A stretch of DNA of 32,000 nucleotides from Psychrosphaera aquimarina. Lineage in GTDB: Bacteria; Pseudomonadota; Gammaproteobacteria; Enterobacterales; Alteromonadaceae. This document shows, in pieces, positions 1,262-17,964 of the stretch. Within the stretch, counting starts at the first letter, position 1; each line of letters begins with the position of its first letter. Location: contig NZ_JAWCUA010000007.1 of assembly GCF_032461525.1 (NCBI RefSeq), positions 324,943-356,942 of the forward strand, written 5' to 3'. Both the position numbers and the translations under genes were made by a program. Below the pieces are notes generated by a model that saw only the letters and a program-made list of their open reading frames with translations, made no database searches and was not told the DNA's origin.

Positions 1262-2119
1262 CTACTTGTTATATTGCACATAGTCAATACCACATGGGGC
1301 AACATCAGATAGCCTGTATGATTGCTCTATTTGTTTTTTAACAAAATAAAAATCCTTGTTCTCTGAAAATAAATGCCCCGCTAAAGGCAATAATTTAACC
1401 CCATCAATAATATGCCTTGCTTGCCCATGTATTTTAAGCAACACAGTATCTGTTGAAATAACTTTCACGACTCCAAAACTATTGTCTGAAAAAGTACAAA
1501 CCCAATCACCTTCTTTAATTTTCTGAGTTTTAGCAAATAACCAAGTTTGCTGCTTTTGATAAGAATGAGGTAGTTTACTTTCTTCTTTTTCAATGAGAGT
1601 TTGGATTACTTGTTTATAAGGGGTTCCTACTGAAAAATTAGTATTTAAAATACCGTGAGGTATTCCATTTGAGCCCTCTATATAAGGGAGATCATTTATA
1701 TCAGTCATCGCAGTCTCTTGATTAATGCCATCACTAGGATAATCTTCCAATTCAATATTACTAATTGAAAAATCGTCCAATTCATAGCCATTACCGTTAG
1801 CTAAGATATTGCTATTTTCGATAAAGGTAATAAATTTGTCAGCTTCCAACATTTCTTCAAAATACCCTATGAATTCACCTAATGAATTAAATGATTCATT
1901 TTGCTCAACAATCCAGTTTAAATATTTTTTAGTTTCTGAAGGTGATTCAGATTTTAATAAATTCATTTGAACACTGAGCTGAGTTAAACGTCCATAAAAA
2001 CGAAAAAACTGACCTTCTTGCTGTTCAAAGAAATTAGATAATAAACTACCTAAGAACTGTTCCTTAGTATTATATTTTGAAAGTGACTTGCAATCGTCAT
2101 TACAAGTGAACCTTGTCAT
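1262..2119 (-). CDS. hypothetical protein (285 aa), no family recognised; last gene of the fibre-locus operon
   Basis: Long ORF lying 20 nt downstream of the preceding ORF on the same strand. It has an acidic central region and no signal peptide if it starts at the ATG at 2119. Its frame stays open upstream to 2224. Confidence 0.5.
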   Translation of the reverse strand: MTRFTCNDDCKSLSKYNTKEQFLGSLLSNFFEQQEGQFFRFYGRLTQLSVQMNLLKSESPSETKKYLNWIVEQNESFNSLGEFIGYFEEMLEADKFITFIENSNILANGNGYELDDFSISNIELEDYPSDGINQETAMTDINDLPYIEGSNGIPHGILNTNFSVGTPYKQVIQTLIEKEESKLPHSYQKQQTWLFAKTQKIKEGDWVCTFSDNSFGVVKVISTDTVLLKIHGQARHIIDGVKLLPLAGHLFSENKDFYFVKKQIEQSYRLSDVAPCGIDYVQYNK

Positions 2120-2139
2120 AAACTGTGAAGATAATAAGT

Positions 2140-2391
2140 CTAAATCTGAATTACCATTAATTGGTGATAATTTAATATTTTTGAGCTCATAGTTCTCCCC
2201 CCAGTCCCTTCCACAACTTGTATGTTAGCGGTAATAGTTAAACCCCAATAGCTAAGTTCAATATTGCTATATCTGGCTAATTCTCTCCAAGCTGTTAGAT
2301 CTGCAGCATGACGATAACCAGCTTTGTCTAATTTTGTTTGGCACCCTAATAACAAAAGGAAGAATACTAAAACAATAGTTAACTTATACAA
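2140..2391 (-). CDS. small putative lipoprotein (83 aa)
   Basis: The N-terminus MYKLTIVLVFFLLLLGCQT has a lipobox (LLG-C). The ORF starts 1 nt after the stop of the upstream gene. The C-terminal ~20 aa look non-native and follow a G6 tract (see findings). Confidence 0.4.
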   Translation of the reverse strand: MYKLTIVLVFFLLLLGCQTKLDKAGYRHAADLTAWRELARYSNIELSYWGLTITANIQVVEGTGGRTMSSKILNYHQLMVIQI

Positions 2392-2894: not shown

Positions 2895-5800
2895 TTATTT
2901 ACTCCAAACGACTTCTAGGTAATTGTCAGTGTCTACTATAAAACCATCAACATTAAGCTTCCGTAGAAACAAGTTAGCTTCTTCTTTAGTAAAAAATGTT
3001 CGGCTAACAACACAATACAACGATTGTTGGCCAACCGTTTTAGTTGCAACATATAATTCATCCACTGTTTCTATGCCTTCAGCTAATTGTTTTGCATTTT
3101 CTAAATCATTCGCAGCAAGAAACTGTACTTTCCAACCTTGCAATATGTATTCCTCTGCGACTTGAGTTTTTACACGATAACCTAAACTTGAATAGTTAGC
3201 CTCACCAACCGCATTTGCTTCAATTTCTGATTCAAAAGGGCCTACCTCGAACCTATATACAATATTGCCTTCTGCGTTCATAGCACGATGTATCTTGTTA
3301 TTCACAATACCTTGGGATTTGATGTATCTTTTTAAACTTAGCAATGTTTTAAAATTCCCTACAGAGAGAAGGAAGTTTCTGGACTGTGACATTCCATCTA
3401 TTTGATTTATTGCTCCTTTGTCCACACCATAATTTAAAAACTCACGGCGCTTTTGAGCATTTAAAATGCGATTCCGAAGCGTTATTCTATTTTCCTGAGT
3501 AACTTGTTGCCTAACGCGCCTAAATTCACCTTCAGCCATTTGATCATAAGAATGCGGGGCGTTAAATCCACCTTTGGGAGGAAGGTGTATTAATTTTTCA
3601 TTACTATTAATTACTTGCTCATAGTTAGTATCATCTAACTTAATATTCATTAATGAAGATTGCACCAGTGTCGTGCTTTTCTCTCTTGTTAATTCAATGT
3701 TAGGTAAAAGTATAAATCCGCCAGTTAACGGAGCTTCAAAGGTAAATCCATAGAACTCCGTGTTATAGCCTTTATCTAACAACCAGTCCTTTTTTATATA
3801 AACCTGATAATTACCTGGTAATAAGTTCGAAAAGTGAACATAACCATCCATATCTGAATCAACAAAATACTCATCTCCAGTCGTTAAGTTTTTAGCTATA
3901 ATCGGCACAGCCGAAAGTATCTGGTTATCACCTTCAGTTATTAATGTAACAAAGAACTCAATTTCTATACTTAAATAAAATGGTAAGTTTATTACTTGCT
4001 GAGATCCTGGATGGCTATAAACCAAATATTTTTGGTTTAAGGTATCAGTTCCTGAAGTCCAACTAGAGCCTAATGCAGTAACCCCCGTTCTTGCCCCAAA
4101 CAATCTGGCTCTTCCGTTTTTATTAGTTGTGATATTTTCCCACCCTGGTCCTCCAGAAAAGGTAACACCTTGTAAATTATGATCTAATGCGTCCGGAATA
4201 CCATTTAGTCTTCGGTCTAGGTATGCATGAACATCAAGTGTCCCTTCACTCCTCATAGAGTTTCTAGAGATAGCTAACCTATCATTGTAATAGTCATAAC
4301 CAAAATTGAATGAGATACCAGCTCTAAGGTTCCATTGTTCATTTGAATTAACGGTAGTTCCAAAAGTAAAGAAGTGAGTTGGTTGTTTCCAAGCTAAGTT
4401 GTAACCAAACTGCCATATGTTTTGTTCACCAAAAGATCGACCAGATAAAAGTATATTTTGGTTCGTCGACTCAGTTCTTACGTTATAGTTTATTGATGCT
4501 GAAATTAAATCTCCATTAAACTCATCAATAGCGTTTACATCATATGGAATATCCATTTTGAAACGTAGATTTGAATCTAACTTTGACATGAAACTTATAT
4601 TGCCAAGACTAACAGTTCCTCCTTCATCAACCTTATTTACAAGAGTGTTCGATATATTAAAACCTTGACCTGCATAATTGATTCTATGTGTGAAACTGTT
4701 CAAAGCTTCATTGTCATACTCATCATAATTAAAGCTAAAATAATTTGTAATTTTATTAATTCTAAAATTATATGTTGCGTTTAAATTATATTCTGAAGCG
4801 ACTTCATCGCCGTTATTCTTTGAATTGTATTGTAAAATAAAGCTATCATTTGGTAAAAATGATGTTGCCACGCTAGAACGTTGCTCGACAATGTCTTCAT
4901 TTATACTGAGATTAGAAGTTAAGAACCACCCTGGCAGTGAAACTTGGTTTAATAAACTATAAATTACTCTCTGATTATCTTCATTATGGATATTGCTAAT
5001 GTTTGCTTTAGCACCAATCATCCAATTATCCAAAATACCATAATTGAAATCACCAGCGATAGCATCTAAGTTGAATTCATCTAGATTGACATTAAGAAGA
5101 GAACTATCGTACTCGAATAGACTAAGGTTAAAAGATTTATCCCCCTCAGCCAAAGCTGTTCTCCTTGCATCAATTTTTTCTATTAGCTCTTCACGTTCAC
5201 CATAAGGACCAAACATTACAATTTTAAATGTATTATTGCCAAAGAAAAGTTCAACATTGTTAATATCTATTACTCCATCGTCTGGAACAATAATTGATTT
5301 TAAAAATACGCCATTATGAAATATATCAGCTTCCCAACCTGGTCGGCCAATTTTCTCAAAACTCGTCTTAAAATTTTCATGGTAGTTTTTCGATGAATTT
5401 CTAGATAAAGATATACCTAGACCTCGACTTTCTTCGTTTGAAAGAGAAGCTGTTCGGCTATAAATATCACCAAAGCTATATTGGTCCCAGATTCCAAGAA
5501 ACTTTTCACCTTGATCCGACGGATAACGACTAAGTCGAGTATGCGTTAACAGCTCGTCATCTCTTTTCGTTAACGTAACCAATGTTGAGTGGTATGCAAA
5601 ATCTGATACCGACTGTAAACTACCATTTAGTGTTTCTGTTTGACCAGTATTTGTATAGTCAATAACCGCAGTTCCAGTGGGTACTGATGCCATTCTGTAA
5701 GTATCTTTAACAGTAATTACCCTTTGGTTTTGTAAATTGCTTTGCTCATTGTTTCTATCCACCAAATATTTATTAAATGACCTCTGCTTTTTATTTAATC

Positions 5801-5969
5801 TTATTTTTTTATACGGAAACTCTTCGGTATGACCGCTTAACTCAAGAGTAAGTTTACGTGTATCCGATATAGCTTTTGTTCCAAGTGACTGCTCTAATGT
5901 AGTTAAGGGTACATAAGTATAAACTCCATCATTAAACCAAAACTCTGTATTTTCAGATTGTATTTCCAC
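2895..5969 (-). CDS. usher-like outer-membrane protein, main body (beta-barrel region + CarboxypepD_reg-like domain + two SPOR-like repeats); lacks its own signal peptide and ATG
   Basis: A 1024-codon ORF that begins only at a GTG, although its frame is open back to 5995. Residues ~150-660 show a long run of beta-strand-like segments rich in N/Y/F/G. Residues ~665-760 (VPIIAKNLTTGDEYFVDSDMDGYVHFSNLLPGNYQVYI) resemble a carboxypeptidase-regulatory beta-sandwich. Residues ~865-1015 form two SPOR-like repeats (..LLSVGNF..YRFEVGPFESEIEANAV.. and ..WKVQFLAANDLENAKQLA..YCVVSRTFFTKEEANLFLRKL..). Its position after two chaperone genes matches an usher. Confidence 0.55.
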   Translation of the reverse strand: MEIQSENTEFWFNDGVYTYVPLTTLEQSLGTKAISDTRKLTLELSGHTEEFPYKKIRLNKKQRSFNKYLVDRNNEQSNLQNQRVITVKDTYRMASVPTGTAVIDYTNTGQTETLNGSLQSVSDFAYHSTLVTLTKRDDELLTHTRLSRYPSDQGEKFLGIWDQYSFGDIYSRTASLSNEESRGLGISLSRNSSKNYHENFKTSFEKIGRPGWEADIFHNGVFLKSIIVPDDGVIDINNVELFFGNNTFKIVMFGPYGEREELIEKIDARRTALAEGDKSFNLSLFEYDSSLLNVNLDEFNLDAIAGDFNYGILDNWMIGAKANISNIHNEDNQRVIYSLLNQVSLPGWFLTSNLSINEDIVEQRSSVATSFLPNDSFILQYNSKNNGDEVASEYNLNATYNFRINKITNYFSFNYDEYDNEALNSFTHRINYAGQGFNISNTLVNKVDEGGTVSLGNISFMSKLDSNLRFKMDIPYDVNAIDEFNGDLISASINYNVRTESTNQNILLSGRSFGEQNIWQFGYNLAWKQPTHFFTFGTTVNSNEQWNLRAGISFNFGYDYYNDRLAISRNSMRSEGTLDVHAYLDRRLNGIPDALDHNLQGVTFSGGPGWENITTNKNGRARLFGARTGVTALGSSWTSGTDTLNQKYLVYSHPGSQQVINLPFYLSIEIEFFVTLITEGDNQILSAVPIIAKNLTTGDEYFVDSDMDGYVHFSNLLPGNYQVYIKKDWLLDKGYNTEFYGFTFEAPLTGGFILLPNIELTREKSTTLVQSSLMNIKLDDTNYEQVINSNEKLIHLPPKGGFNAPHSYDQMAEGEFRRVRQQVTQENRITLRNRILNAQKRREFLNYGVDKGAINQIDGMSQSRNFLLSVGNFKTLLSLKRYIKSQGIVNNKIHRAMNAEGNIVYRFEVGPFESEIEANAVGEANYSSLGYRVKTQVAEEYILQGWKVQFLAANDLENAKQLAEGIETVDELYVATKTVGQQSLYCVVSRTFFTKEEANLFLRKLNVDGFIVDTDNYLEVVWSK

Positions 5970-6268
5970 CCCCTCAGAAAAAAGAATTTCTTTTTTTGTT
6001 CAAAGACTTCAATCTCTAAATTATTTTCCACAAATCGATACTTTACCCTTAAACTATCAAGTATTGGTGTAATAGCTATATACGTTTTGTCATCAATTAC
6101 GTAAGCGTCAATTGCACGAGCAATATTAAGCCCTTCATCTTTTACATCAAATAAATAAAACTCACCGAGCTCCAATTTAATAACATCTAACTTAGTAAGT
6201 GTTACGCCCATTAATTGTGTGCTAAACAAACAGAGTCCAAATATTAAAAGTTTTATAATTGAGTGCAT
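5903..6268 (-). CDS. N-terminal fragment of the usher-like protein (signal peptide plus N-terminal domain), separated from the main body by a frame change at an A7 tract
   Basis: It starts MHSIIKLLIFGLCLFSTQLMG (signal peptide) and begins 4 nt after the chaperone stop. After ...LEIEVFEQKK the frame runs into junk and stops at 5903. The -1 frame continues as EILFSEGVEIQSENTEFWF... into the 1024-aa ORF. Confidence 0.6.
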   Translation of the reverse strand: MHSIIKLLIFGLCLFSTQLMGVTLTKLDVIKLELGEFYLFDVKDEGLNIARAIDAYVIDDKTYIAITPILDSLRVKYRFVENNLEIEVFEQKKKFFFLRGWKYNLKIQSFGLMMEFILMYP

Positions 6269-6272
6269 AAGA

Positions 6273-7025
6273 TTAACCGCCTACTGGCGTCTCAGACTTT
6301 ATTTGTCCTGACTCCTTAAGCTCATTAAACATTATTTTTAAAGGTGAATCTGTGTCAGATTTTAGCTCAAGCTCAAGCTGTTTAGGCTTTTCTCCCGGGT
6401 AGTGAGATACCTTTTTCAATTCTTTTATTATACCTCCTGATTCCTGATATCCGATTGTCACATCTCCACTAACAGAGCGTTCTCCGGTAACTAACATCTC
6501 AGCAAAAACCTTAGTACCTACTTTTCTCACATTTGAAAAAGTTACTTGAGAATCAAGTTTTTTTGTTCTAACAATTAATGGGATGTTTTGTACCAATGTT
6601 GGTTTTATTTCCACTTTTTTAGTACTTTCTTCAGCTTGTCCTTTACAGATAACTGCAATCGCTCCGATATACTCTCCATCTTCAACACCTGGTTTACGTC
6701 TGTATATAGCTTTAAATTCTTGTACTTGCCTAAAATCGAGATTAAATCTACTTGGCGCAATTCTGACCATATTAACAGGACTAGGATTATTAATGCCGTC
6801 GCCTTCTGTTAAAGTTAATTTTCCATTCTTCACATCCAAGTTTCTAACTTCTATTTTACAAGTTAAAGGTTCATCATCTGAATTAATAACACTCATACTT
6901 GTACTCTGGACATCTGGAGATAAAAATAAACGTGTCGAAGTAACTGTAACAGATTCGACTGATACACTAATAAAACAAAATAGGAGCCCAAAACCAAGCT
7001 TTATAATATATTGCTTTGTATTCAT
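6273..7025 (-). CDS. PapD-like periplasmic fibre chaperone, paralog 2
   Basis: Signal peptide, then the first strand VTSTRLFLSPDVQSTSMSVINSDDEPLTCKI with a conserved Arg. A later segment, VRIAPSRFNLDFRQVQEFKAIY, resembles the chaperone motif f-v-x-PP-x-f-x-l-x-p-g-x-x-q-x-x-R. The size (about 250 aa) and two-domain layout fit, and it lies between another chaperone and the usher. Confidence 0.5.
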   Translation of the reverse strand: MNTKQYIIKLGFGLLFCFISVSVESVTVTSTRLFLSPDVQSTSMSVINSDDEPLTCKIEVRNLDVKNGKLTLTEGDGINNPSPVNMVRIAPSRFNLDFRQVQEFKAIYRRKPGVEDGEYIGAIAVICKGQAEESTKKVEIKPTLVQNIPLIVRTKKLDSQVTFSNVRKVGTKVFAEMLVTGERSVSGDVTIGYQESGGIIKELKKVSHYPGEKPKQLELELKSDTDSPLKIMFNELKESGQIKSETPVGG

Positions 7026-7037
7026 AAGAACGCTTCC

Positions 7038-7784
7038 TTAGATAGATAATTTAAAGGTTTTTTTATACTTATAGGATCCAGTTTCAACAAACTCAATCCC
7101 TATACCTTGCTCTGAAATGTATTTCGTTTGAATAGAAATTGCTAGTTTCTTCATATCCGAATACAGCACAGTGTTCTTTTTCAACTTTTCTAAACGCTTT
7201 CCATTATTATCAACTAAATATACATCACCGTATACTGACCGATTACCGCTATGGAGTAGGTTAATAGAGAACTCGTCTTGATCACGTTTCACAATTTCTA
7301 GATCAAGATCGACTGTATATTTTTTTGTATCACCAGTTCTCATAACTAAAGGTACAGCTAAATCTAATAATGTCGCAAATCGTCCCTGTCCATCTTCTAC
7401 ACTTGTTTGTTTACGACAGGAAAAAACGGCATAAGTCCTAACCTCATTACTCGAGTCGTTAGGAATTCTTCTATAAGAAAAAGAAATATATCTTGTTGAA
7501 TTTGGTTCAATAACGAAGCTCTTCGGTGAATATTTTACTCTAGCTAGAGCAGCTTTCGATAACTCGGCTTGTTCTTCAACTGTTAATTTTTTGACACCAC
7601 CAATACCGTCATAAAGCCTATTGTTAAATTTAATTTCACAAATTTCGGGAACTACGGACTTGTTCCTAATTGGAAACTTTTTATTGCGGTTATCTTCGTC
7701 AAGGTATATTCGAAAAGCTCCCAATGAAGCCGCCCCCGCATTAGATACCCAAACAAATAGAAGTAAAAAAAGTATCAGTTTCAT
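7038..7784 (-). CDS. PapD-like periplasmic fibre chaperone, paralog 1
   Basis: Signal peptide MKLILFLLLFVWVSNAGA, then LGAFRIYLDEDNRNKKFPIRNKS (first-strand Arg). A later segment reads VKYSPKSFVIEPNSTRYISFSYR. A GAGG ribosome-binding site lies 4 nt upstream of the ATG. Confidence 0.5.
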   Translation of the reverse strand: MKLILFLLLFVWVSNAGAASLGAFRIYLDEDNRNKKFPIRNKSVVPEICEIKFNNRLYDGIGGVKKLTVEEQAELSKAALARVKYSPKSFVIEPNSTRYISFSYRRIPNDSSNEVRTYAVFSCRKQTSVEDGQGRFATLLDLAVPLVMRTGDTKKYTVDLDLEIVKRDQDEFSINLLHSGNRSVYGDVYLVDNNGKRLEKLKKNTVLYSDMKKLAISIQTKYISEQGIGIEFVETGSYKYKKTFKLSI

Positions 7785-8165: not shown

Positions 8166-8792
8166 TTATTGATAGATTACATTAACATCATAGTCTGCAG
8201 TGTACGAACCATCTGCAGTTAAGGCTACTTGGTTTACAATCGTACCACCAACGATAATACGTGTTTGACCTGCTGGTAAGTTCGCAGTTAAGTCTGGTGA
8301 TGCCTGTACAGGTTGTCCGTTACCTAGTCCTTCAGTAATTTGATCAAATGTAGCTGTATTTGAAGCTGTGAAATCCGCAACGTATGCATCGGGGGTAAAC
8401 GCAATATCGTTTGCAGCACCAGCTATAACTTCAACTGTGATACCTGCATCAGCATAAGCAGAAATACCAATAATGCCTACCTGACCATTTGCATCTGGAT
8501 CACCACAACCAGTACCTAAATCACCTGAAGCTGTGTAACCTGTAGGTGTACCTACACCTAACTGACCAGCTGACAGCGTTTCAGTACCAGCACCTACTGG
8601 GTCCATAACACAGGAGGCTGCTGGAGTTAGTGCCAATACAGGCCCAAAGTCTAGAGCCCTAATTGGTGTCAATGTAATTTCAGCTAACGTATCAAAAGTT
8701 AAAGTTGCTGTAAAATCTGTTGCAGCTGCATTTGCCGACAAACCAGCCAAAACTAATGGCAAACTTTTCTTAATCATATTTAAAGTTTTCAT
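8166..8792 (-). CDS. secreted acidic fibre subunit (DUF4402 / spore-coat-U-like), 208 aa
   Basis: Signal peptide ...GLSANAAA|TD. The mature N-terminus FTATLTFDTLAEITLT has alternating hydrophobic residues. It also has LDFGPV, a Cys pair (ASCVMDP, GTGCGDP) and the tail GQTRIIVGGTIVNQVALTADGSYTADYDVNVIYQ. The mature part contains almost no Lys or Arg. A GGAGA ribosome-binding site is present. Confidence 0.6.
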   Translation of the reverse strand: MKTLNMIKKSLPLVLAGLSANAAATDFTATLTFDTLAEITLTPIRALDFGPVLALTPAASCVMDPVGAGTETLSAGQLGVGTPTGYTASGDLGTGCGDPDANGQVGIIGISAYADAGITVEVIAGAANDIAFTPDAYVADFTASNTATFDQITEGLGNGQPVQASPDLTANLPAGQTRIIVGGTIVNQVALTADGSYTADYDVNVIYQ

Positions 8793-8806: not shown

Positions 8807-9559
8807 TTATTCGTAAGTTACTGTTACAACAACAGAATCACTAACCGCACCTGCTGTAATTGGAGTTCCATCAAATACTAGGACTCCACCAAGTAATATG
8901 TGAGTTTGGCCAGTATTATCTTCAAGCACCGAACCGCCAGTATCACCAGCACCTACTGATAAACCTACACCGGTAATCGATGTAACACCATCAAAGTCTC
9001 TACATACGTCTACGGCAGCAGTTCCATCAAAATCAACTACACAAGTTTGATCTCCAGCTGTATAAGTCCAACCAGTACCAACAACATCAGGGATATCTAC
9101 AGAAACTGTTGCACCTGCTACACCATCAACTTCTAAGACCATATGTGATCCGACTGTGGTACCCGTTGCGGCATCACCTAGACAGCCTGTTGAGTCATCA
9201 GCAATTTCACCAGGTACATGAGCGGCAGCTGCTCCATCAGTTAATGGTGTACCAGCTGGTATTACTAAGTCAGCTGCATCACTGGTATCATTACCATCGA
9301 TATTAACTAGTAAATCAGTCTCAAAAGCATTTGTCGCTGCAACAAGAATACAAGTATCGTTATTGTTTGGATTCAACTTAATTTTATCACCAAATGATAG
9401 GCTAGAATCTCCCAGTGATGCATGTTGTGTAATCGTAACATCAGATACCGCCTGAGCAGTAATTGTATATGTATCCGCACTAGCAACAAAGGCATTACCC
9501 AAGCCTAATATTAAGGCACTTGCTACTAGCGTCTTTTTCATTTTAAATTTTGGTTGCAT
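8807..9559 (-). CDS. secreted acidic fibre subunit (DUF4402 / spore-coat-U-like), 250 aa
   Basis: A strong GGAGG ribosome-binding site lies 7 nt upstream of the ATG. Signal peptide ...AFVASA|DT. It has the strand YTITAQAVSDVTIT, LSFGDK, four Cys residues and the tail GQTHILLGGVLVFDGTPITAGAVSDSVVVTVTYE. It is a paralog of the 208-aa and 166-aa proteins. Confidence 0.6.
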   Translation of the reverse strand: MQPKFKMKKTLVASALILGLGNAFVASADTYTITAQAVSDVTITQHASLGDSSLSFGDKIKLNPNNNDTCILVAATNAFETDLLVNIDGNDTSDAADLVIPAGTPLTDGAAAAHVPGEIADDSTGCLGDAATGTTVGSHMVLEVDGVAGATVSVDIPDVVGTGWTYTAGDQTCVVDFDGTAAVDVCRDFDGVTSITGVGLSVGAGDTGGSVLEDNTGQTHILLGGVLVFDGTPITAGAVSDSVVVTVTYE

Positions 9560-11379: not shown

Positions 11380-14300
11380 ATGCTTGATCAGATTTTAGCT
11401 TATTTCTCCATCTCCCCAGACAGCATTCTTATTTATGGTACTCACAACAAAGCAATGGTTGCTTTGTCCTTGTTTATCGCCATTTTGTCATCGTTTATGG
11501 GGTTGCAACTGGCGACTCAAGAAGCCAAAGACATTTCTATCGTACGTAGGAACATTACCTTATTGGGTGGTAGTGTTGCATTAGGTGGTGGTATTTGGTC
11601 TATGCATTTTATTGGTATGTTAGCGTTTGAGTTATGTACCGTGGTCGATTATAACGTTTCATTAACTTTATTCTCAATGTTGCCAGGCATAGCCGCATCG
11701 TTTGTTGCATTAAATCATATACAAAAACACACAAATGGTATCAAACCTCTTATATGGGGAGGCGTGTTGGTTGGTTCGGGAATAGGTGCTATGCACTATA
11801 CCGGCATGGCTTCAATGCAAATGGCGCCTTTGCTTCGTTATGATTTATCTATTTTTACCTTATCTATAATAGTGGCCGTTACCTTTGCTATGTTGTCATT
11901 ATGGATCCGTACTGGTTTGTTAAAAATCTGGGGACAAAAAGGTTGGCAAGCTAATTTAGTTGCTAGTGTCGTAATGGGCTTTGCTATTGCGGGTATGCAT
12001 TACACTGGCATGGCTGCTGCTCGTTTTGTTAAACCACCTGGATTAGAACTTGGCGACCAAACCAGTGAAATGTCCTTTTATTTAGCGCTAGTGGTTTCCA
12101 TTACTACTATCGTGATCATCACACTTATTTTATGTATTAATGTGATCTACAAATACCGAGATATATCCCGCCATGCCAGTTTAAGTGAGCATAGATTACG
12201 CTCTATGATGGATACTGCGGTGGATGCCATTATTAGTTTTGACCGCAAAGGGATTATAGAGAATGTAAACCGAGCCACTGAAACTTTGCTAGGTTGGAAT
12301 TCTCATGAGATTGTTGGCAAAAATGTAAAGTTATTGATGCCGCCAGAATCTTACGACACGCACGATAATAATTTACGAGAGTTTATTACTACAGGCCAAT
12401 CAAGTGTTATAGGTGGAAGCCGAGAGGTCAAAGCTCAACATAAAGATGGCACCTTAATTAATATTAGGTTAGCTATTGGCCATGTAGATCTTGAAAGAGA
12501 TAGTTTTTTTGTTGCCTTTATGTCCGACATACGTCAGCGCATTGAAATGGAACAAGCCCTTCGCGAAAATGAAGCTAAATTCAGATCGTTAATTAGTAAT
12601 ATTCCAGGCATTGCCTACCGTTGTTTAAACGAAAAAAGCTGGCCTTTATTGTTTATCAGTGATGCGGTTGAAGAAATTACAGGTTATCCGGCTAAGGATT
12701 TTTTACCGCCTAATAACAAACGAAATTTCTCGGATTTATTCCACCCTGACGATGTCGATTTGATTTCTTCGAACCAAATAGTGGATCAAATGTTCAATCT
12801 AGAATATCGAATTATCACTAAAAATGGTGATATTCGTTGGATGATGGAATTTGGCAATCATATTACCGACGATGAAACCGGAGAGATTTGGTTAGACGGT
12901 TTCATTATGGATATCACTGAGCGTCAAAATATGGAACAACAGCTTAGAGAAGCAAAAGAAATAGCAGAAGAAGCAGCAGAAGCGCGCGCCGCGTTTATGG
13001 CAAATATGAGCCATGAAATTAGAACGCCAATGAATGCCATTATTGGTTTTAGTGACATTTTATTAGAAACAGAACTAAAACCCGACCAGCTTAAACACTT
13101 GAATGTTATTAACAATGCGTCTAAATCATTATTACATTTATTAAACGATATATTAGACAGTGCAAAACTCGACAAAGGTAAGTTAGAGCTTGAGTTAAGA
13201 CAATTCTCATTAATAGAAGAAGTCGATGCGGTCATCTCTACATTATGGTTACAAGCCAGAAATAAAGGTTTAGAGCTAAATGCCGACATTTCTCGCAAAC
13301 TAAACGGCTTTTATTTAGGTAGCCCTGAACGTATACGACAAGTATTAACTAATTTAATTGGTAATGCAGTTAAATTTACCGAATCAGGCCGAGTGACGGT
13401 TTCGGTATACCCTGTTGGTGATAATAATGTAAGGTTCGAAATAGAAGACACTGGTATTGGCATGGACGAGCAACAGCTTAAATCTGTATTTGAAGCCTTT
13501 ACCCAAGCCGATGCATCCATGAGTCGACGTTTTGGCGGAACGGGCTTAGGGACCACCATTAGTAAACAACTTGTTGAATTAATGGGTGGGGAAATAAATG
13601 CACAGAGCGAACTTAATGTTGGTACTAAGTTTTACTTTGAACTTCCGTTACCACAAGTCAAACACAAAGTTGAAAAACAGCAAGTCACTCAGGTTCAGTT
13701 ACCGCCATTAAAAATATTAGTAGTGGATGATATCCAACAAAATATAGACTTATTAACCTTGTTACTCGAACGAGATGGCCATACCGTTGTGACCGCCCGA
13801 GACGGAAAACAAGCATTAGTACGTATGTCTGATTGTAAAGAAATCCAATTAGTATTAATGGATATTCAAATGCCAGTCTTAGATGGCTTAAATGCTACTA
13901 AACAAAGACGTGAATACGAAAAACAACATCAACTCCCTCAAATGCCGATAATCGCGTTAACCGCAAGTGTATTATTAGACGACAAATTAGCGGCTGAACA
14001 ATCAGGCATGCAAGGGTTTGCAAATAAACCGGTGGATTACACTTTATTAAGTAATGAAATTGCCCGAGTGTTAGACATTGACGTCGAACTGTCTCCTGTT
14101 ACGGTTGATAATAACAAGGCCGATTTATTAATGGATGAGACTAAAGGTGAAGCACTGTGGGGAAGTTTAGATGCTTATTATCAGCAAATATTAAGCTTTA
14201 TAAATAGTCAAAGTGTTGCAATTACGGATCTAAAACAAATAATAGTTTCTGAAAGCTGGGACAAAGTAACGGCCGTAGCCCATTCACTAAAAGGTGTGAG

Positions 14301-14694
14301 TGGTAATTTAGCCATAGTAAAATTACAACGTCTTTTTGCGCAACTTGAATCTGTCGTCAGCAGCCACCCAGAACAATGTATTTCTGTATATGAAACTATT
14401 GATGATGTTTTTACCGAGTTAACCGACAAAGTAAACACGTGGAAAAATAACTATCAAAATGTGGCAACATTTTCTGAAGTTGATCAAGATGCGTTAATCA
14501 GCTTACTCAATCAGCTACACACAAAGGCGCAAGAAAATGAAGCTGAAGAAACTGATCTCGCTGAACTGTTAACATACAGTGAATCCGAATACCGTAGCGA
14601 TATAAATAAAATTTATAACGCATTAAATGATTTTGAATTTGAATATGCTCTGGAGCATATAGTAGCGCTTAAACAACGCCTAGAAAGTAAGTGA
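11380..14694 (+). CDS. hybrid sensor histidine kinase: MHYT membrane sensor - PAS - PAS - HisKA/HATPase - receiver - HPt
   Basis: The multi-TM N-terminus carries three MHYT motifs (MHFIGM, MHYTGM, MHYTGM), followed by two PAS-like segments. The kinase core shows the H-box [16 protein letters not shown] and ATPase boxes [16 protein letters not shown] and GGTGLGT. The receiver reads ILVVDD...[11 protein letters not shown] and the HPt domain reads [12 protein letters not shown]. Confidence 0.9.
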
Positions 14695-14704
14695 AGGTAA
14701 AGTA

Positions 14705-15691
14705 ATGGAAAACAAACAAGCAACCATTTTAATTGTTGATGATGAACCGGCTAACTTACGCGTTTTAAAACAGATTTTACAACAAGATTATCGATTGATT
14801 TTTGCTAAAGGCGGTCAAGAAGCATTACGTTTAGCACACGATAAAAAACCAAATCTAATACTATTAGATATTATGATGCCTGATATAACTGGGTTAGAAG
14901 TCTGTAAACAACTGAAAGCCGATCCCGTCACCACTAAAATACCCGTTATTTTTGTGACGGCATTAAACGATCATGATGATGAAGCTCAAGGATTAGAACT
15001 TGGTGCAGTCGATTACATAACCAAACCAGTATCAGCCCCTGTAGTTAAAGCTCGTGTCGCGACACATTTATCACTTGTGCAAGCCGACGAATTAAGACGA
15101 ACTCGTCTACAAGTCATACAGCGCTTAGGGCATGCATCGGAATACAAAGATAATGAAACAGGCATGCACGTAATGCGCATGAGCCATTATTCTCAGGTTC
15201 TGGCGCTTGCTTTTGGATTCTCAGAACAACGGGCTGACGATTTACTTCATGCGGCACCTATGCATGATTTAGGAAAAATAGGCATTCCAGATAGCATTAT
15301 GCTAAAACCAGGCAAGTTAACTAACGAAGAGTTTGATGTGATGAAAACGCATCCCGTTATTGGCGCTCATATCTTAGGGGACGATGACTCAGACTTGATC
15401 AGTTTAGCCAAAGTAGTCGCCCTAACTCACCATGAAAAATGGGATGGTACAGGCTACCCAAATGGTCTAGCCGGTAAAGATATACCAGTTGAAGGTCGTA
15501 TCGTTGCAATCGCAGATGTATTTGATGCCTTAACGAGTGTTCGACCATATAAAGATGCTTGGTCAATTGAAAGGGCTGTAGAGTTAATACAAAATGAAAG
15601 TGGAAAACACTTTGATCCGGAACTGGTTAGTCTGTTTGTTCAAGAACTAGATAAAATGCTAGAAATTAAACAACGCTGGAAAGATGAATAA
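14705..15691 (+). CDS. response regulator with HD-GYP domain (RpfG-type c-di-GMP phosphodiesterase)
   Basis: Receiver domain ILIVDDEPANL...LLDIMMPDITG...ITKP. HD-GYP motifs HDLGKIGIP and HHEKWDGTGYPNGL. The gene starts 10 nt after the kinase stop, behind a GAAGG ribosome-binding site. Confidence 0.9.
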   Translation: MENKQATILIVDDEPANLRVLKQILQQDYRLIFAKGGQEALRLAHDKKPNLILLDIMMPDITGLEVCKQLKADPVTTKIPVIFVTALNDHDDEAQGLELGAVDYITKPVSAPVVKARVATHLSLVQADELRRTRLQVIQRLGHASEYKDNETGMHVMRMSHYSQVLALAFGFSEQRADDLLHAAPMHDLGKIGIPDSIMLKPGKLTNEEFDVMKTHPVIGAHILGDDDSDLISLAKVVALTHHEKWDGTGYPNGLAGKDIPVEGRIVAIADVFDALTSVRPYKDAWSIERAVELIQNESGKHFDPELVSLFVQELDKMLEIKQRWKDE

Positions 15692-17094: not shown

Positions 17095-17163
17095 ATTATG
17101 TTCCAATCTCAAAAACAATTGGCTAAATATAGTACAAGTACCCAATAAAGAAACGGTGCATTA

Positions 17164-17962
17164 ACCACTAAGGTCACTAAGAACACAAAGGAAAATTATA
17201 TCCTGATCAAAAGAACTTCTTAGCATTCTTTATGGTTCAACTGCTTTAATCTTGAAGAGCTAACCAACCACAAAGATCACTAAGGACACAAAGGAAAAAA
17301 TTATACCCTTATCAAAAGAACTTCTTAGCATTCTTTATGGTTCAAGTGCTTTAGATCCACCACACTCTAACTCAGAAAAGTAACTGTATCCTGCTTATCC
17401 ATTCACCAGCACTTCTTCATGTCCTTTGTGGTTCAACTGCTTTAATCTTTAAGATCTAACAAAACACAAAGATCACTAAGGACACAAAGGAAAAAATTAT
17501 ATCCTTATCAAAAGAACTTCTTAGCACTCTTTATGGTTCAGCTGCTTTAATCTTTAAGAGCTAACAAACCACAAAGATCACTAAGGACAAAAAGGAAAAA
17601 ATTATACCCTTATCAAAAGAACTTCTTAGCATTCTTTGTGGTTCAAGTGCTTTATTCTTTAAAAGATAAACAACCACTCATTTCACACAGCGCACTAAAT
17701 AAAGGGTGAAGATTAAGTCAGTACTTTCAATCACTCTTCTTCGTGTCCTTTGTGGTTCAAGTGCTTTAATCTTTAAGAACTAACAAACCACAAAGATCAC
17801 TAAGGACAAAAAGGAAAAAATTATACCCTTATCAAAAGAACTTCTTAGCATTATTTGTGGTTCAAGTGCTTTAGATCCACCAAACTTTAACTCAGAAAAG
17901 TAACTGTATCCTGCTTATCAATTCACCTGCTCTTCTTCGTGTCCTTGTGGTTCAGCTGCTTT
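17164..17962. repeat. array of five imperfect-palindromic repeat units (basic period about 104 bp; three units are expanded to about 175-220 bp)
   Basis: Left arms ACCACAAAGATCACTAAGGACACAAAGG start at 17164, 17267, 17463, 17568 and 17787. Inverted right arms CTTCTTAGCATTCTTT(A/G)TGGTTCA(A/G)(C/G)TGCTTTA occur eight times. The inserts at about 17353-17420 and 17873-17940 are near-identical to each other. The array begins immediately after the lgt stop. Confidence 0.9.
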
Positions 17963-17964
17963 TG

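Follow-up and report, generated by a model that had tools for sequence, protein, structure and literature searches.

A divergent usher-like protein with a C-terminal SPOR domain in a putative chaperone-usher gene cluster of Psychrosphaera aquimarina

The stretch of the Psychrosphaera aquimarina genome analysed here (32 kb of contig NZ_JAWCUA010000007.1, hereafter referred to as the window) contains a gene that raises the question of whether an outer-membrane usher can carry its own peptidoglycan-binding module. The main ORF of this gene (positions 2895–5969; 1024 aa with the GTG start as annotated) encodes a protein that NCBI lists, at 100% identity, as 'SPOR domain-containing protein [Psychrosphaera aquimarina]', and all features for which coordinates are given below are, like this ORF, located on the minus strand. 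A preliminary description of the sequence had read the product as an usher-like protein ending in a carboxypeptidase-regulatory-like sandwich and two SPOR-like repeats, and the residues quoted in its favour were found at the places given (residues 665–760 at nt 3690–3977 and residues 865–1015 at nt 2925–3377). To our knowledge, none of the ushers studied so far is linked to the cell wall or has a known positioning mechanism; they are free-standing pores of the outer membrane.

The 1024-aa ORF by itself is missing ~100 N-terminal residues together with the signal peptide. A 121-aa ORF (5903–6268), which belongs to the same gene and is parted from the main ORF by a frameshift, encodes this signal peptide and the beginning of the N-terminal domain. 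The frameshift site is a run of seven A residues followed by G (5990–5997; A_AAA_AAG in frame), and a −1 shift at this run yields a full-length usher-like protein (1124 aa when fused), the sequence of which is covered to 97–100% by homologues of 1055–1143 aa. The gene is a single continuous ORF in the sister species and is uninterrupted in all 25 homologues. Apart from the frameshift, neither reading frame is disrupted and both are conserved, with 69% full-length identity to the sister species and no internal stops. A frameshift was also found in the last gene of the cluster, which encodes a lipoprotein (392 aa in the sister species) and is split into ORFs of 83 and 285 aa (1262–2391) at a C6/G6 run near position 2197, the only G/C run of at least six bases within the window. 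The lengths of the neighbouring genes agree with those in the sister species. Homopolymer runs are the usual place of sequencing and assembly errors as well as of reversible slipped-strand switching. Programmed −1 frameshifting at A_AAA_AAG was considered and rejected, because no frameshift-stimulating RNA structure was found downstream of the A7 run (z 0.27), an A-run is absent from the corresponding site of the sister species, and a second homopolymer frameshift is located nearby. An Rfam scan of the 32-kb window gave no matches. A full-length usher in the P. aquimarina genome requires a −1 correction within the A7 run.

In the AlphaFold2 model of the 1024-aa ORF (mean pLDDT 70; mostly 75–88 in the barrel), residues ~98–570 (4260–5678) form a predicted 24-strand β-barrel translocation domain, an assignment that also draws on Foldseek and hhalign. 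The model takes in just the end of the N-terminal domain, at low confidence, the rest being removed by the frameshift. The predicted strand order is six barrel strands, a six-strand insert (residues 201–268) and then 18 further barrel strands. This insert between barrel strands 6 and 7 represents a plug-like domain (residues ~201–270; 5160–5369), which was also recognized by hhalign, aligns in register with the FimD plug and carries the motif PGWE..I.HNG....VP.DG...IN.V....G.N.F.I..FGP.GE. (dots, any residue). In a Foldseek search against the PDB, the best 18 matches were all FimD or PapC (E 3.7e-22 to 7e-10; 500–836 aligned columns), whereas LptD and TonB-dependent receptors ranked lower (E about 1e-4), placing ushers ahead of all other barrels by more than 10 orders of magnitude.

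Homology to ushers was also detected by profile–profile comparison. An hhalign comparison of 42 relatives with five Escherichia coli ushers gave a match (95.4%, E 2e-8, 469 columns) that spans the plug, the barrel and CTD1 and ends at usher column 777 of 866. The usher and chaperone signals emerged only with small profiles of E. coli ushers and chaperones; the family profiles gave no significant signal against a single FimD or FimC sequence, and a phmmer search of the whole protein against PDB sequences returned nothing useful. The Pfam Usher model (PF00577) had no match at E ≤ 1 in the window protein, and its best match among the relatives, in a distant one, was weak (22.2 bits versus a cutoff of 27.1; E 7.7e-5). 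In distant relatives, the N-terminal domain matches Cu_amine_oxidN1. By predicted fold and profile–profile comparison, the window protein is confirmed as a very divergent outer-membrane usher, and the earlier designation 'usher-like' is upheld, although without a Pfam Usher match.

Two predicted periplasmic β-sandwiches follow the barrel. The first (residues ~576–665; 3975–4244) was identified by AlphaFold2 and hhalign as the equivalent of CTD1, and the second (residues ~668–761; 3687–3968), which occupies the position of CTD2, resembles transthyretin, CarboxypepD_reg and SdrD_B domains. The proposed CarboxypepD_reg sandwich stands in that a β-sandwich is modelled and that CarboxypepD_reg (PF13620) passes the cutoff at the same position in relatives (e.g. 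47.2 and 40.4 bits), but the window protein itself scores 20.7–23.1 bits, under the cutoff of 32.3. CarboxypepD_reg matches were obtained for 21 of the 26 close homologues and 33 of the 42 distant ones. The family profile matches the B domain of SdrD (SdrD_B, PF17210; E 1.1e-8), and the best non-usher matches in Foldseek were SdrD B domains and the TIE protein (E about 1e-6). Sequence similarity between the second sandwich and classical CTD2 was not found (E 0.3), and the reading of this domain as a diverged classical CTD2 was dropped because sequence support was absent. The CarboxypepD_reg-like sandwich is the CTD2-position domain, located immediately after the CTD1 homologue, and not an extra module.

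The second sandwich is followed by a linker modelled at low confidence by AlphaFold2 (residues ~762–865; 3375–3686), with a long helix at residues 808–845, and by the two SPOR-like repeats (SPOR1 and SPOR2). The linker contains the motif K-L-I-H-L-P-P-K-G-G (residues 792–801; 3567–3596), of which L, H, L, P, P and the first G are invariant. In 26 homologues, the tether between the sandwich and SPOR2 is 122–201 residues long (median 171), and its length stays in a similar range even in homologues lacking SPOR1.

Both repeats lie past the usher C-terminal sandwiches and are distinct from them. AlphaFold2 predicts the β-α-β-β-α-β arrangement of the RNP-like fold, as anticipated in the preliminary description, for each repeat (residues 858–1024; mean pLDDT 87.4, mostly 82–95). 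SPOR2 (residues ~945–1024; 2898–3137) is a genuine SPOR domain: Pfam SPOR (PF05036) matches residues 945–1010 with 32.9 bits (cutoff 21; E 8e-8), and the SPOR domain of DamX (2lfv) is matched by the tail profile (E 5.5e-4) and by a broader family profile (E 1.1e-8). Residue Q949 of SPOR2, which does not vary among 26 homologues, corresponds in the alignment to DamX Q351, the equivalent of which touches the NAM lactyl group in SPOR domains (PMC6895207). The small residue three positions past this Gln is likewise retained, as in DamX, FtsN and RlpA (PMC6895207). SPOR2 also carries an extra C-terminal strand, with the conserved WSK at its end. A near-invariant Cys occupies what we take, from the DamX alignment and our placement of the FtsN residues, to be the position of FtsN Arg285.

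For the two SPOR-like repeats proposed earlier, significance was obtained for the last one, but the first (SPOR1; residues ~866–935; 3165–3374) is degenerate. SPOR is its sole Pfam match and is sub-threshold (13.7 bits, E 0.08), and the column of the key glycan-contacting Gln is occupied by Ser. Three of the six orthologous copies match SPOR (best E 0.004), and SPOR1 aligns to the position of the family profile that matches the SPOR domains of CwlC (E 5e-5) and FtsN (E 6.5e-4). Only low-complexity linker is present in place of SPOR1 in 20 of the 26 close homologues. With the model of the tandem tail as query, Foldseek retrieved no SPOR structures; all matches were tandem ferredoxin-like proteins of a generic kind (ACT, RRM; best E 4e-4), a result that is consistent with the predicted fold class and does not specify SPOR identity.

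The genes around the usher gene are those of a putative fibre system. A PapD-like periplasmic chaperone of 250 aa (6273–7025) matches PapD_N (E 0.008) and an NCBIfam pilus chaperone model (E 8e-4), both under the cutoffs, and the chaperone profile aligns with six E. coli chaperones in hhalign (81.9%, E 1.1e-5). The best PDB sequence match of this protein is PapD, and its invariant Arg32 aligns with PapD Arg8. A second, paralogous chaperone-like protein of 248 aa (7038–7784) and two putative fibre subunits are also encoded: one of 208 aa (8166–8792), which is weakly DUF4402-like (E 0.017 and 0.0035), and one of 250 aa (8807–9559), which has no family match and the position of which is kept in three other genomes. 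The 166-aa secreted protein encoded directly downstream of the usher (2393–2893), with conserved synteny, is probably a minor subunit. The gene order of the cluster is kept in three other genomes, FlgO-like lipoprotein genes adjoin it in every locus compared, and in the locus of a distant relative, two clear DUF4402 genes and a PapD_N chaperone gene adjoin the usher gene.

A survey of usher-plus-SPOR fusions, as had been suggested in the preliminary description, identified one to three C-terminal SPOR domains in 103 of 172 relatives. SPOR is absent from the other 69, so that this module is dispensable for usher function. In one relative, SPOR is missing and an AMIN domain is present at the N-terminus, which lends support to the analogy drawn earlier with AMIN domains on secretins. 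The relatives picked up by a genome scan with one of the alignments were all close ones and belonged to Psychrosphaera, Paraglaciecola, Colwellia and an unclassified gammaproteobacterium. The combination of usher and SPOR tail recurs in many unannotated relatives and is undescribed for any studied usher; literature searches on DUF4402, on SPOR plus usher and on peptidoglycan-binding ushers found nothing relevant. In the databases, the relatives are named merely 'SPOR domain-containing' or 'hypothetical'. Owing to such uninformative names, a whole class of pilus systems would be invisible to annotation in marine Gammaproteobacteria and beyond.

Taken as a whole, the protein is probably a divergent usher with a plug, CTD1-like and transthyretin-like sandwiches and a SPOR tether, acting as a peptidoglycan-tethered platform with a possible location at the septum or pole. 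Such an usher would serve a chaperone-usher fibre system comprising DUF4402-like subunits as well as two PapD-like chaperones. Its even-stranded barrel would leave both the N- and C-termini in the periplasm, so that the tail would be able to reach the peptidoglycan layer and bind via SPOR2. The flexible tether of ~170–180 residues, which includes the degenerate SPOR1, would end in the canonical SPOR2. By binding peptide-free glycan strands, the latter would anchor the assembly platform to the wall. Division sites are where denuded glycans accumulate, and the septum or new pole would therefore be the probable location of the platform.

Whether such a platform is made in this strain depends on the frameshifts, and it is quite conceivable, though we do not favour it, that they are real and that the usher with its SPOR tail is a pseudogene or switched off in P. 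aquimarina, with no full-length exported protein. The placement of the signal peptide and first ~100 residues in a separate frame, against 25 of 25 continuous homologues, would fit such a loss, as would the second frameshift in the downstream 392-aa gene at the sole G/C run of at least six bases, the agreement of neighbouring gene lengths with the sister species and the lack of a frameshift-stimulating RNA structure. However, both shifts fall in homopolymer runs, where sequencing or assembly errors and slipped-strand switching are typical, and the frames are otherwise intact, with 69% identity to the sister species and no internal stops; moreover, this explanation bears on one strain only and leaves the family unaffected.

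Two other explanations concern the nature of the tail and of the barrel. The SPOR-like domains may be ferredoxin-like interaction or gating modules that dock chaperones, FlgO-like lipoproteins or the usher N-terminal domain and do not bind peptidoglycan. The absence of the key Gln from SPOR1 and of SPOR1 itself from 20 of 26 close homologues, the generic ferredoxin-like tandems in the fold search, the resemblance of the invariant linker peptide LIHLPPKGG to a docking site and the constant proximity of FlgO lipoprotein genes all point this way, yet we regard it as unlikely, given that SPOR2 scores above the curated Pfam cutoff and keeps the invariant Gln and small residue of DamX, FtsN and RlpA (PMC6895207), that all SPOR domains characterised so far are reported to bind denuded glycans (bioRxiv 10.1101/2022.07.01.498525), and that one relative bears AMIN, another septal-wall-binding module, in the absence of SPOR. 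It is very improbable that the protein is some other large outer-membrane barrel (LptD-like, TonB-receptor-like or a polysaccharide- or curli-type exporter) with incidental SPOR domains. Such an identity would agree with the missing Pfam Usher match and with the LptD and TonB-dependent receptor hits at E about 1e-4, but against it stand the lead of ushers over any other barrel by more than 10 orders of magnitude, the plug between strands 6 and 7, the profile match over plug, barrel and CTD1, the adjoining PapD-like chaperones and the DUF4402 and PapD_N genes flanking the usher of a distant relative.

The favoured wall-fixed usher shares with FimD and PapC (PF00577, PapC_N, PapC_C) a predicted 24-strand barrel, a plug between strands 6 and 7, two sandwiches predicted to be periplasmic, detectable profile–profile homology (95%, E 2e-8) and adjacent PapD-like chaperones. 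In contrast to these ushers, it is not seen by the Pfam Usher model, has a transthyretin-type sandwich in the CTD2 position and extends for a further 260 residues, in which one or two SPOR domains are located, whereas the five E. coli ushers compared (826–878 aa) end at CTD2. Its subunits are DUF4402-like instead of belonging to the Fimbrial family, and the N-terminal domain of distant relatives is like Cu_amine_oxidN1 rather than PapC_N. Divergence from classical fimbriae is shared with the archaic (sigma) chaperone-usher systems (Csu pili, SCPU-domain subunits). The small subunits of this cluster and those of Csu pili presumably have in common a stretch of alternating hydrophobic residues at the N-terminus, the motif L-x-F-G and a C-terminus of the form Y...V.V.Y/F. 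Csu-type ushers are recognized by Pfam Usher and are not known to carry a SPOR tail.

Compared with FtsN, DamX, DedD, RlpA and CwlC, the protein has the same RNP-like fold, the strand-1 Gln (in SPOR2) and a C-terminal location after a long flexible linker. In those proteins, SPOR is carried by a divisome protein or wall hydrolase, whereas here it is located on an integral outer-membrane pore, where it follows a degenerate first copy. The SPOR domain of the lipoprotein RlpA is likewise periplasmic, with the protein anchored in the outer membrane (PMC6895207). Among pilus machines, that of type IV pili is recruited to poles and division sites through the AMIN domains of PilQ (PMC5285504, PMC10653833). 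In PilQ, the outer-membrane channel of the machine is joined to a peptidoglycan-binding module, which binds septal wall material (PMC5285504, PMC10653833), and the same is predicted for the new usher, but the two differ in the channel (secretin versus usher), in the wall-binding fold and in its location (N-terminal AMIN versus C-terminal SPOR).

The existence of a widespread usher branch with one to three SPOR domains on a long tether suggests that some fibres may be braced against or positioned by peptidoglycan, as in the case of AMIN-bearing secretins. The tail is a small pair of soluble domains with one predicted key residue, Q949, which makes this proposal testable. More speculatively, and with doubt on our part, these proteins may represent a large unrecognized branch of chaperone-usher systems with DUF4402-type fibres, in which the outer-membrane platform would find its position by sensing the condition of the wall: SPOR or, in some members, AMIN domains would capture glycans denuded by division amidases, and fibres, installed at the septum, would be inherited at the new pole. 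If true, this would be the first known localisation mechanism for any usher.

The main ORF of the usher-SPOR gene (2895-5969, minus strand) encodes a 1024-aa protein, and the strings quoted in the preliminary description were found in it at the residues and nucleotides assigned to them. The product is 100% identical to the Psychrosphaera aquimarina entry 'SPOR domain-containing protein' of NCBI. In total, 25 homologues (1055-1143 aa, 35-69% identity), named either 'SPOR domain-containing' or 'hypothetical', were identified in Psychrosphaera, Paraglaciecola and metagenomes; scanning species-representative genomes extended the range to Colwellia and one unclassified gammaproteobacterium.

No usher match to this protein was found in Pfam or NCBIfam, and phmmer against PDB sequences yielded nothing useful. 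The AlphaFold2 model, built with a 26-sequence alignment (mean pLDDT 70; mostly 75-88 in the barrel), comprises six strands, then an insert that itself has six (residues 201-268), then another 18 strands and, after them, two beta-sandwiches (residues 576-665 and 668-761); the predicted architecture would be a barrel of 24 strands whose plug lies between the sixth and the seventh. When the model was compared with the PDB using Foldseek, ranks 1-18 were all FimD or PapC (E 3.7e-22 to 7e-10, 500-836 aligned columns), and LptD and TonB-dependent receptors ranked lower, only near E 1e-4. The family profiles showed no significant match to FimD alone, the best (non-significant) alignment placing the conserved block PGWE...NG...VP.DG...G.N.F.I..GP.GE on the FimD plug. 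In a profile-profile comparison (hhalign), 42 diverse relatives matched five E. coli K-12 ushers (FimD, HtrE, SfmD, ElfC and YehB) with 95.4% probability (E 2e-8) over 469 columns that take in the plug, the remainder of the barrel and CTD1, the first periplasmic C-terminal domain of classical ushers. The Pfam Usher model also matched one distant relative weakly (E 7.7e-5). On the basis of the fold ranking, the profile-profile match and this weak match, the protein is a true, if remote, usher-superfamily member overlooked by curated models, and the first two of these bear out its original designation as 'usher-like'. Cu_amine_oxidN1 (PF07833, up to 35.6 bits) was matched before the barrel in six distant relatives (P0112, P0115, P0123, P0164, P0167 and P0170), and thus the N-terminal domain of this branch may differ from that of classical ushers.

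The hhalign match to classical ushers stops after CTD1, just before the second sandwich (residues 668-761), which therefore occupies the place of CTD2. A direct comparison of the sandwich profile with the classical CTD2 region revealed no similarity. The assignment of this domain to the CarboxypepD_reg type is supported by its modelled beta-sandwich and by its relatives, but the match in the window protein itself is below the cutoff (20.7-23.1 versus 32.3 bits), with Ig_DR_A0283, SdrD_B and SpaA as weaker alternatives. CarboxypepD_reg was matched in 21 of 26 close homologues and in 33 of 42 distant ones (SdrD_B in 37 of 42), exceeding the cutoff in individual relatives (47.2 and 40.4 bits). 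Solved structures matched by the family profile include the SdrD B domain (E 1.1e-8), NOMO2 and other prealbumin-like domains. A transthyretin-like domain at the CTD2 position, rather than an added module, is the description that suits the sandwich best.

Both repeats of the C-terminal tail had been described as SPOR-like. The last one, SPOR2 (residues 945-1010), scores above the Pfam curated cutoff (32.9 bits, E 8e-8), confirming it as a SPOR domain, and the SPOR domain of DamX was matched by the tail profile (E 5.5e-4) and a broader family profile (E 1.1e-8). Across 26 homologues, Q949 is invariant and A952 nearly so; they align on Q351 and S354 of DamX (our own residue numbering). The Gln residues corresponding to Q949, Q251 of FtsN and Q270 of RlpA, touch the lactyl carboxylate of NAM (PMC6895207). 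For the first repeat, SPOR1 (residues 866-935), SPOR is the sole Pfam match, although weaker than in SPOR2 (13.7 bits), and the key Gln is replaced by Ser. On the other side, three of six orthologous copies match SPOR (best E 0.004), the CwlC SPOR domain aligns in register (E 0.2), as do the SPOR1 and SPOR2 profiles with one another (E 9e-4), and the family-profile segment to which SPOR1 aligns (positions 949-1022) matches the SPOR domains of CwlC (E 5e-5) and FtsN (E 6.5e-4). When residues 858-1024 were modelled separately with AlphaFold2 (mean pLDDT 87.4), the beta-alpha-beta-beta-alpha-beta pattern appeared twice, as anticipated. The best fold matches of the tandem tail are tandem ACT and RRM proteins (Foldseek, best E 4e-4), so that the modelled fold class is confirmed in a manner not specific to SPOR. 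Only a low-complexity linker is present at the SPOR1 place in 20 of 26 close homologues, and the stretch from the sandwich to SPOR2 measures 122-201 residues (median 171) with or without SPOR1. Within this otherwise poorly conserved linker of low model confidence, K-L-I-H-L-P-P-K-G-G (3567-3596; residues 792-801), with 6 of 10 positions invariant, looks like a docking motif for some partner.

Searched with a profile, 1.84 billion representative proteins yielded 367 matches with E<=1e-30 and 2206 with E<=1e-3; the less significant ones may include SPOR-only or sandwich-only alignments. Fusions of usher and SPOR, the existence of which had been raised as a question, do occur: among 172 sequences scanned with HMMs made from the family's own SPOR columns, 103 carry at least one C-terminal SPOR domain (two in 45 and three in 2), whereas 69 have none, most of the latter being of ordinary usher size (830-960 aa). 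Independently, Pfam assigns SPOR to 28 of the 42 relatives that were sampled (best E 6e-22). One distant relative without SPOR, P0149 (locus L005:4131-7931), contains an N-terminal AMIN domain (residues 108-183; 30.2 bits versus a cutoff of 20.5), and no further types of wall-binding module were found in eight other long relatives. Full-text literature searches on SPOR with usher or chaperone-usher, on DUF4402 and on peptidoglycan-binding ushers returned nothing relevant.

Upstream of the usher lie two paralogous chaperone-like genes (6273-7025 and 7038-7784, minus strand; ~250 aa each), with weak PapD_N and pilus-chaperone matches. The profile of the pair matched that of six E. coli chaperones (81.9%, E 1.1e-5), and its best PDB sequence match is PapD, with an invariant Arg aligning with Arg8. 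The paralogues are ~20% identical, adjacent in four of four genomes, and share the invariant Arg32 and Cys56/Cys127. Secreted proteins of 208 aa (weakly DUF4402-like) and 250 aa are encoded further upstream; downstream, the usher is followed by genes for another secreted protein (166 aa) and for a lipoprotein. Three other genomes conserve the order FlgO lipoproteins, two subunits, two chaperones, usher-SPOR, a 165-aa gene and a 374-450-aa gene; the gene of the much more distant relative P0112 has as neighbours two clear DUF4402 genes and one for a PapD_N-like chaperone. Two genes for FlgO-domain lipoproteins (PF17680; 9768-10502 and 10511-11131, minus strand; E 2.5e-43 and 1.1e-29) immediately precede the fibre operon. 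In each of the three other genomes examined, this position is taken by two or three FlgO genes, and two of these genomes have further copies downstream. Encoded divergently from the fibre cluster (11380-15691, plus strand) are a hybrid sensor kinase of 1104 aa and an HD_5-domain response regulator; the two may control the fibre. Psychrosphaera sp. F3M07 has this pair in the corresponding position, and its kinase orthologue contains MHYT, PAS, HisKA and HATPase domains. Elsewhere in the window, the 800 bp between a PD-(D/E)XK gene and lgt (17146-17964) hold no wholly contained ORF of at least 40 aa and no Rfam match.

Two genes of the cluster are split. A separate 121-aa ORF (5903-6268, minus strand) encodes the signal peptide and the first ~100 residues of the usher, and a -1 shift in the A7 run at 5991-5997 (frameshift site 5990-5997, minus strand) fuses both frames into a 1124-aa protein covered end to end by homologues, which are continuous ORFs. 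The run reads A_AAA_AAG, a classic -1 slippery heptamer, but programmed frameshifting is unlikely because there is no RNA structure downstream and no A-run in the sister species, Psychrosphaera sp. F3M07. The last gene (1262-2391, minus strand), a 392-aa lipoprotein gene in F3M07, is interrupted at 2197-2202, the only G/C homopolymer of at least 6 bases in the 32-kb window. The presence of two such shifts in a single operon for a surface structure could reflect decay of the genes, phase variation, or errors of sequencing or assembly.

An even-stranded usher barrel would leave both termini in the periplasm, and hence the ~260-residue tail beyond the sandwich would be periplasmic; its flexible linker with a 38-residue helix and its SPOR domains could plausibly reach the peptidoglycan. 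The ligands of SPOR domains are glycan strands without stem peptides, which are enriched at the septum, and RlpA is an outer-membrane-anchored protein using such a domain (PMC6895207). For the type IV pilus machine, recruitment to sites of division and to future poles is brought about by the AMIN domains of PilQ (PMC5285504, PMC10653833), and a published catalogue of AMIN fusions to transport modules of the outer membrane does not mention ushers (PMC2572700). Given the periplasmic tail, SPOR glycan recognition and the RlpA and PilQ precedents, the tail would most likely serve to tether the usher to the wall, as first proposed. Septal or polar placement would be a plausible consequence of such a tether, and simple mechanical bracing is the conservative alternative. 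The SPOR domain of this protein was already flagged in databases, whereas its usher identity was not; what is new is a chaperone-usher platform with a putative wall-binding tail, across a broad unannotated family.
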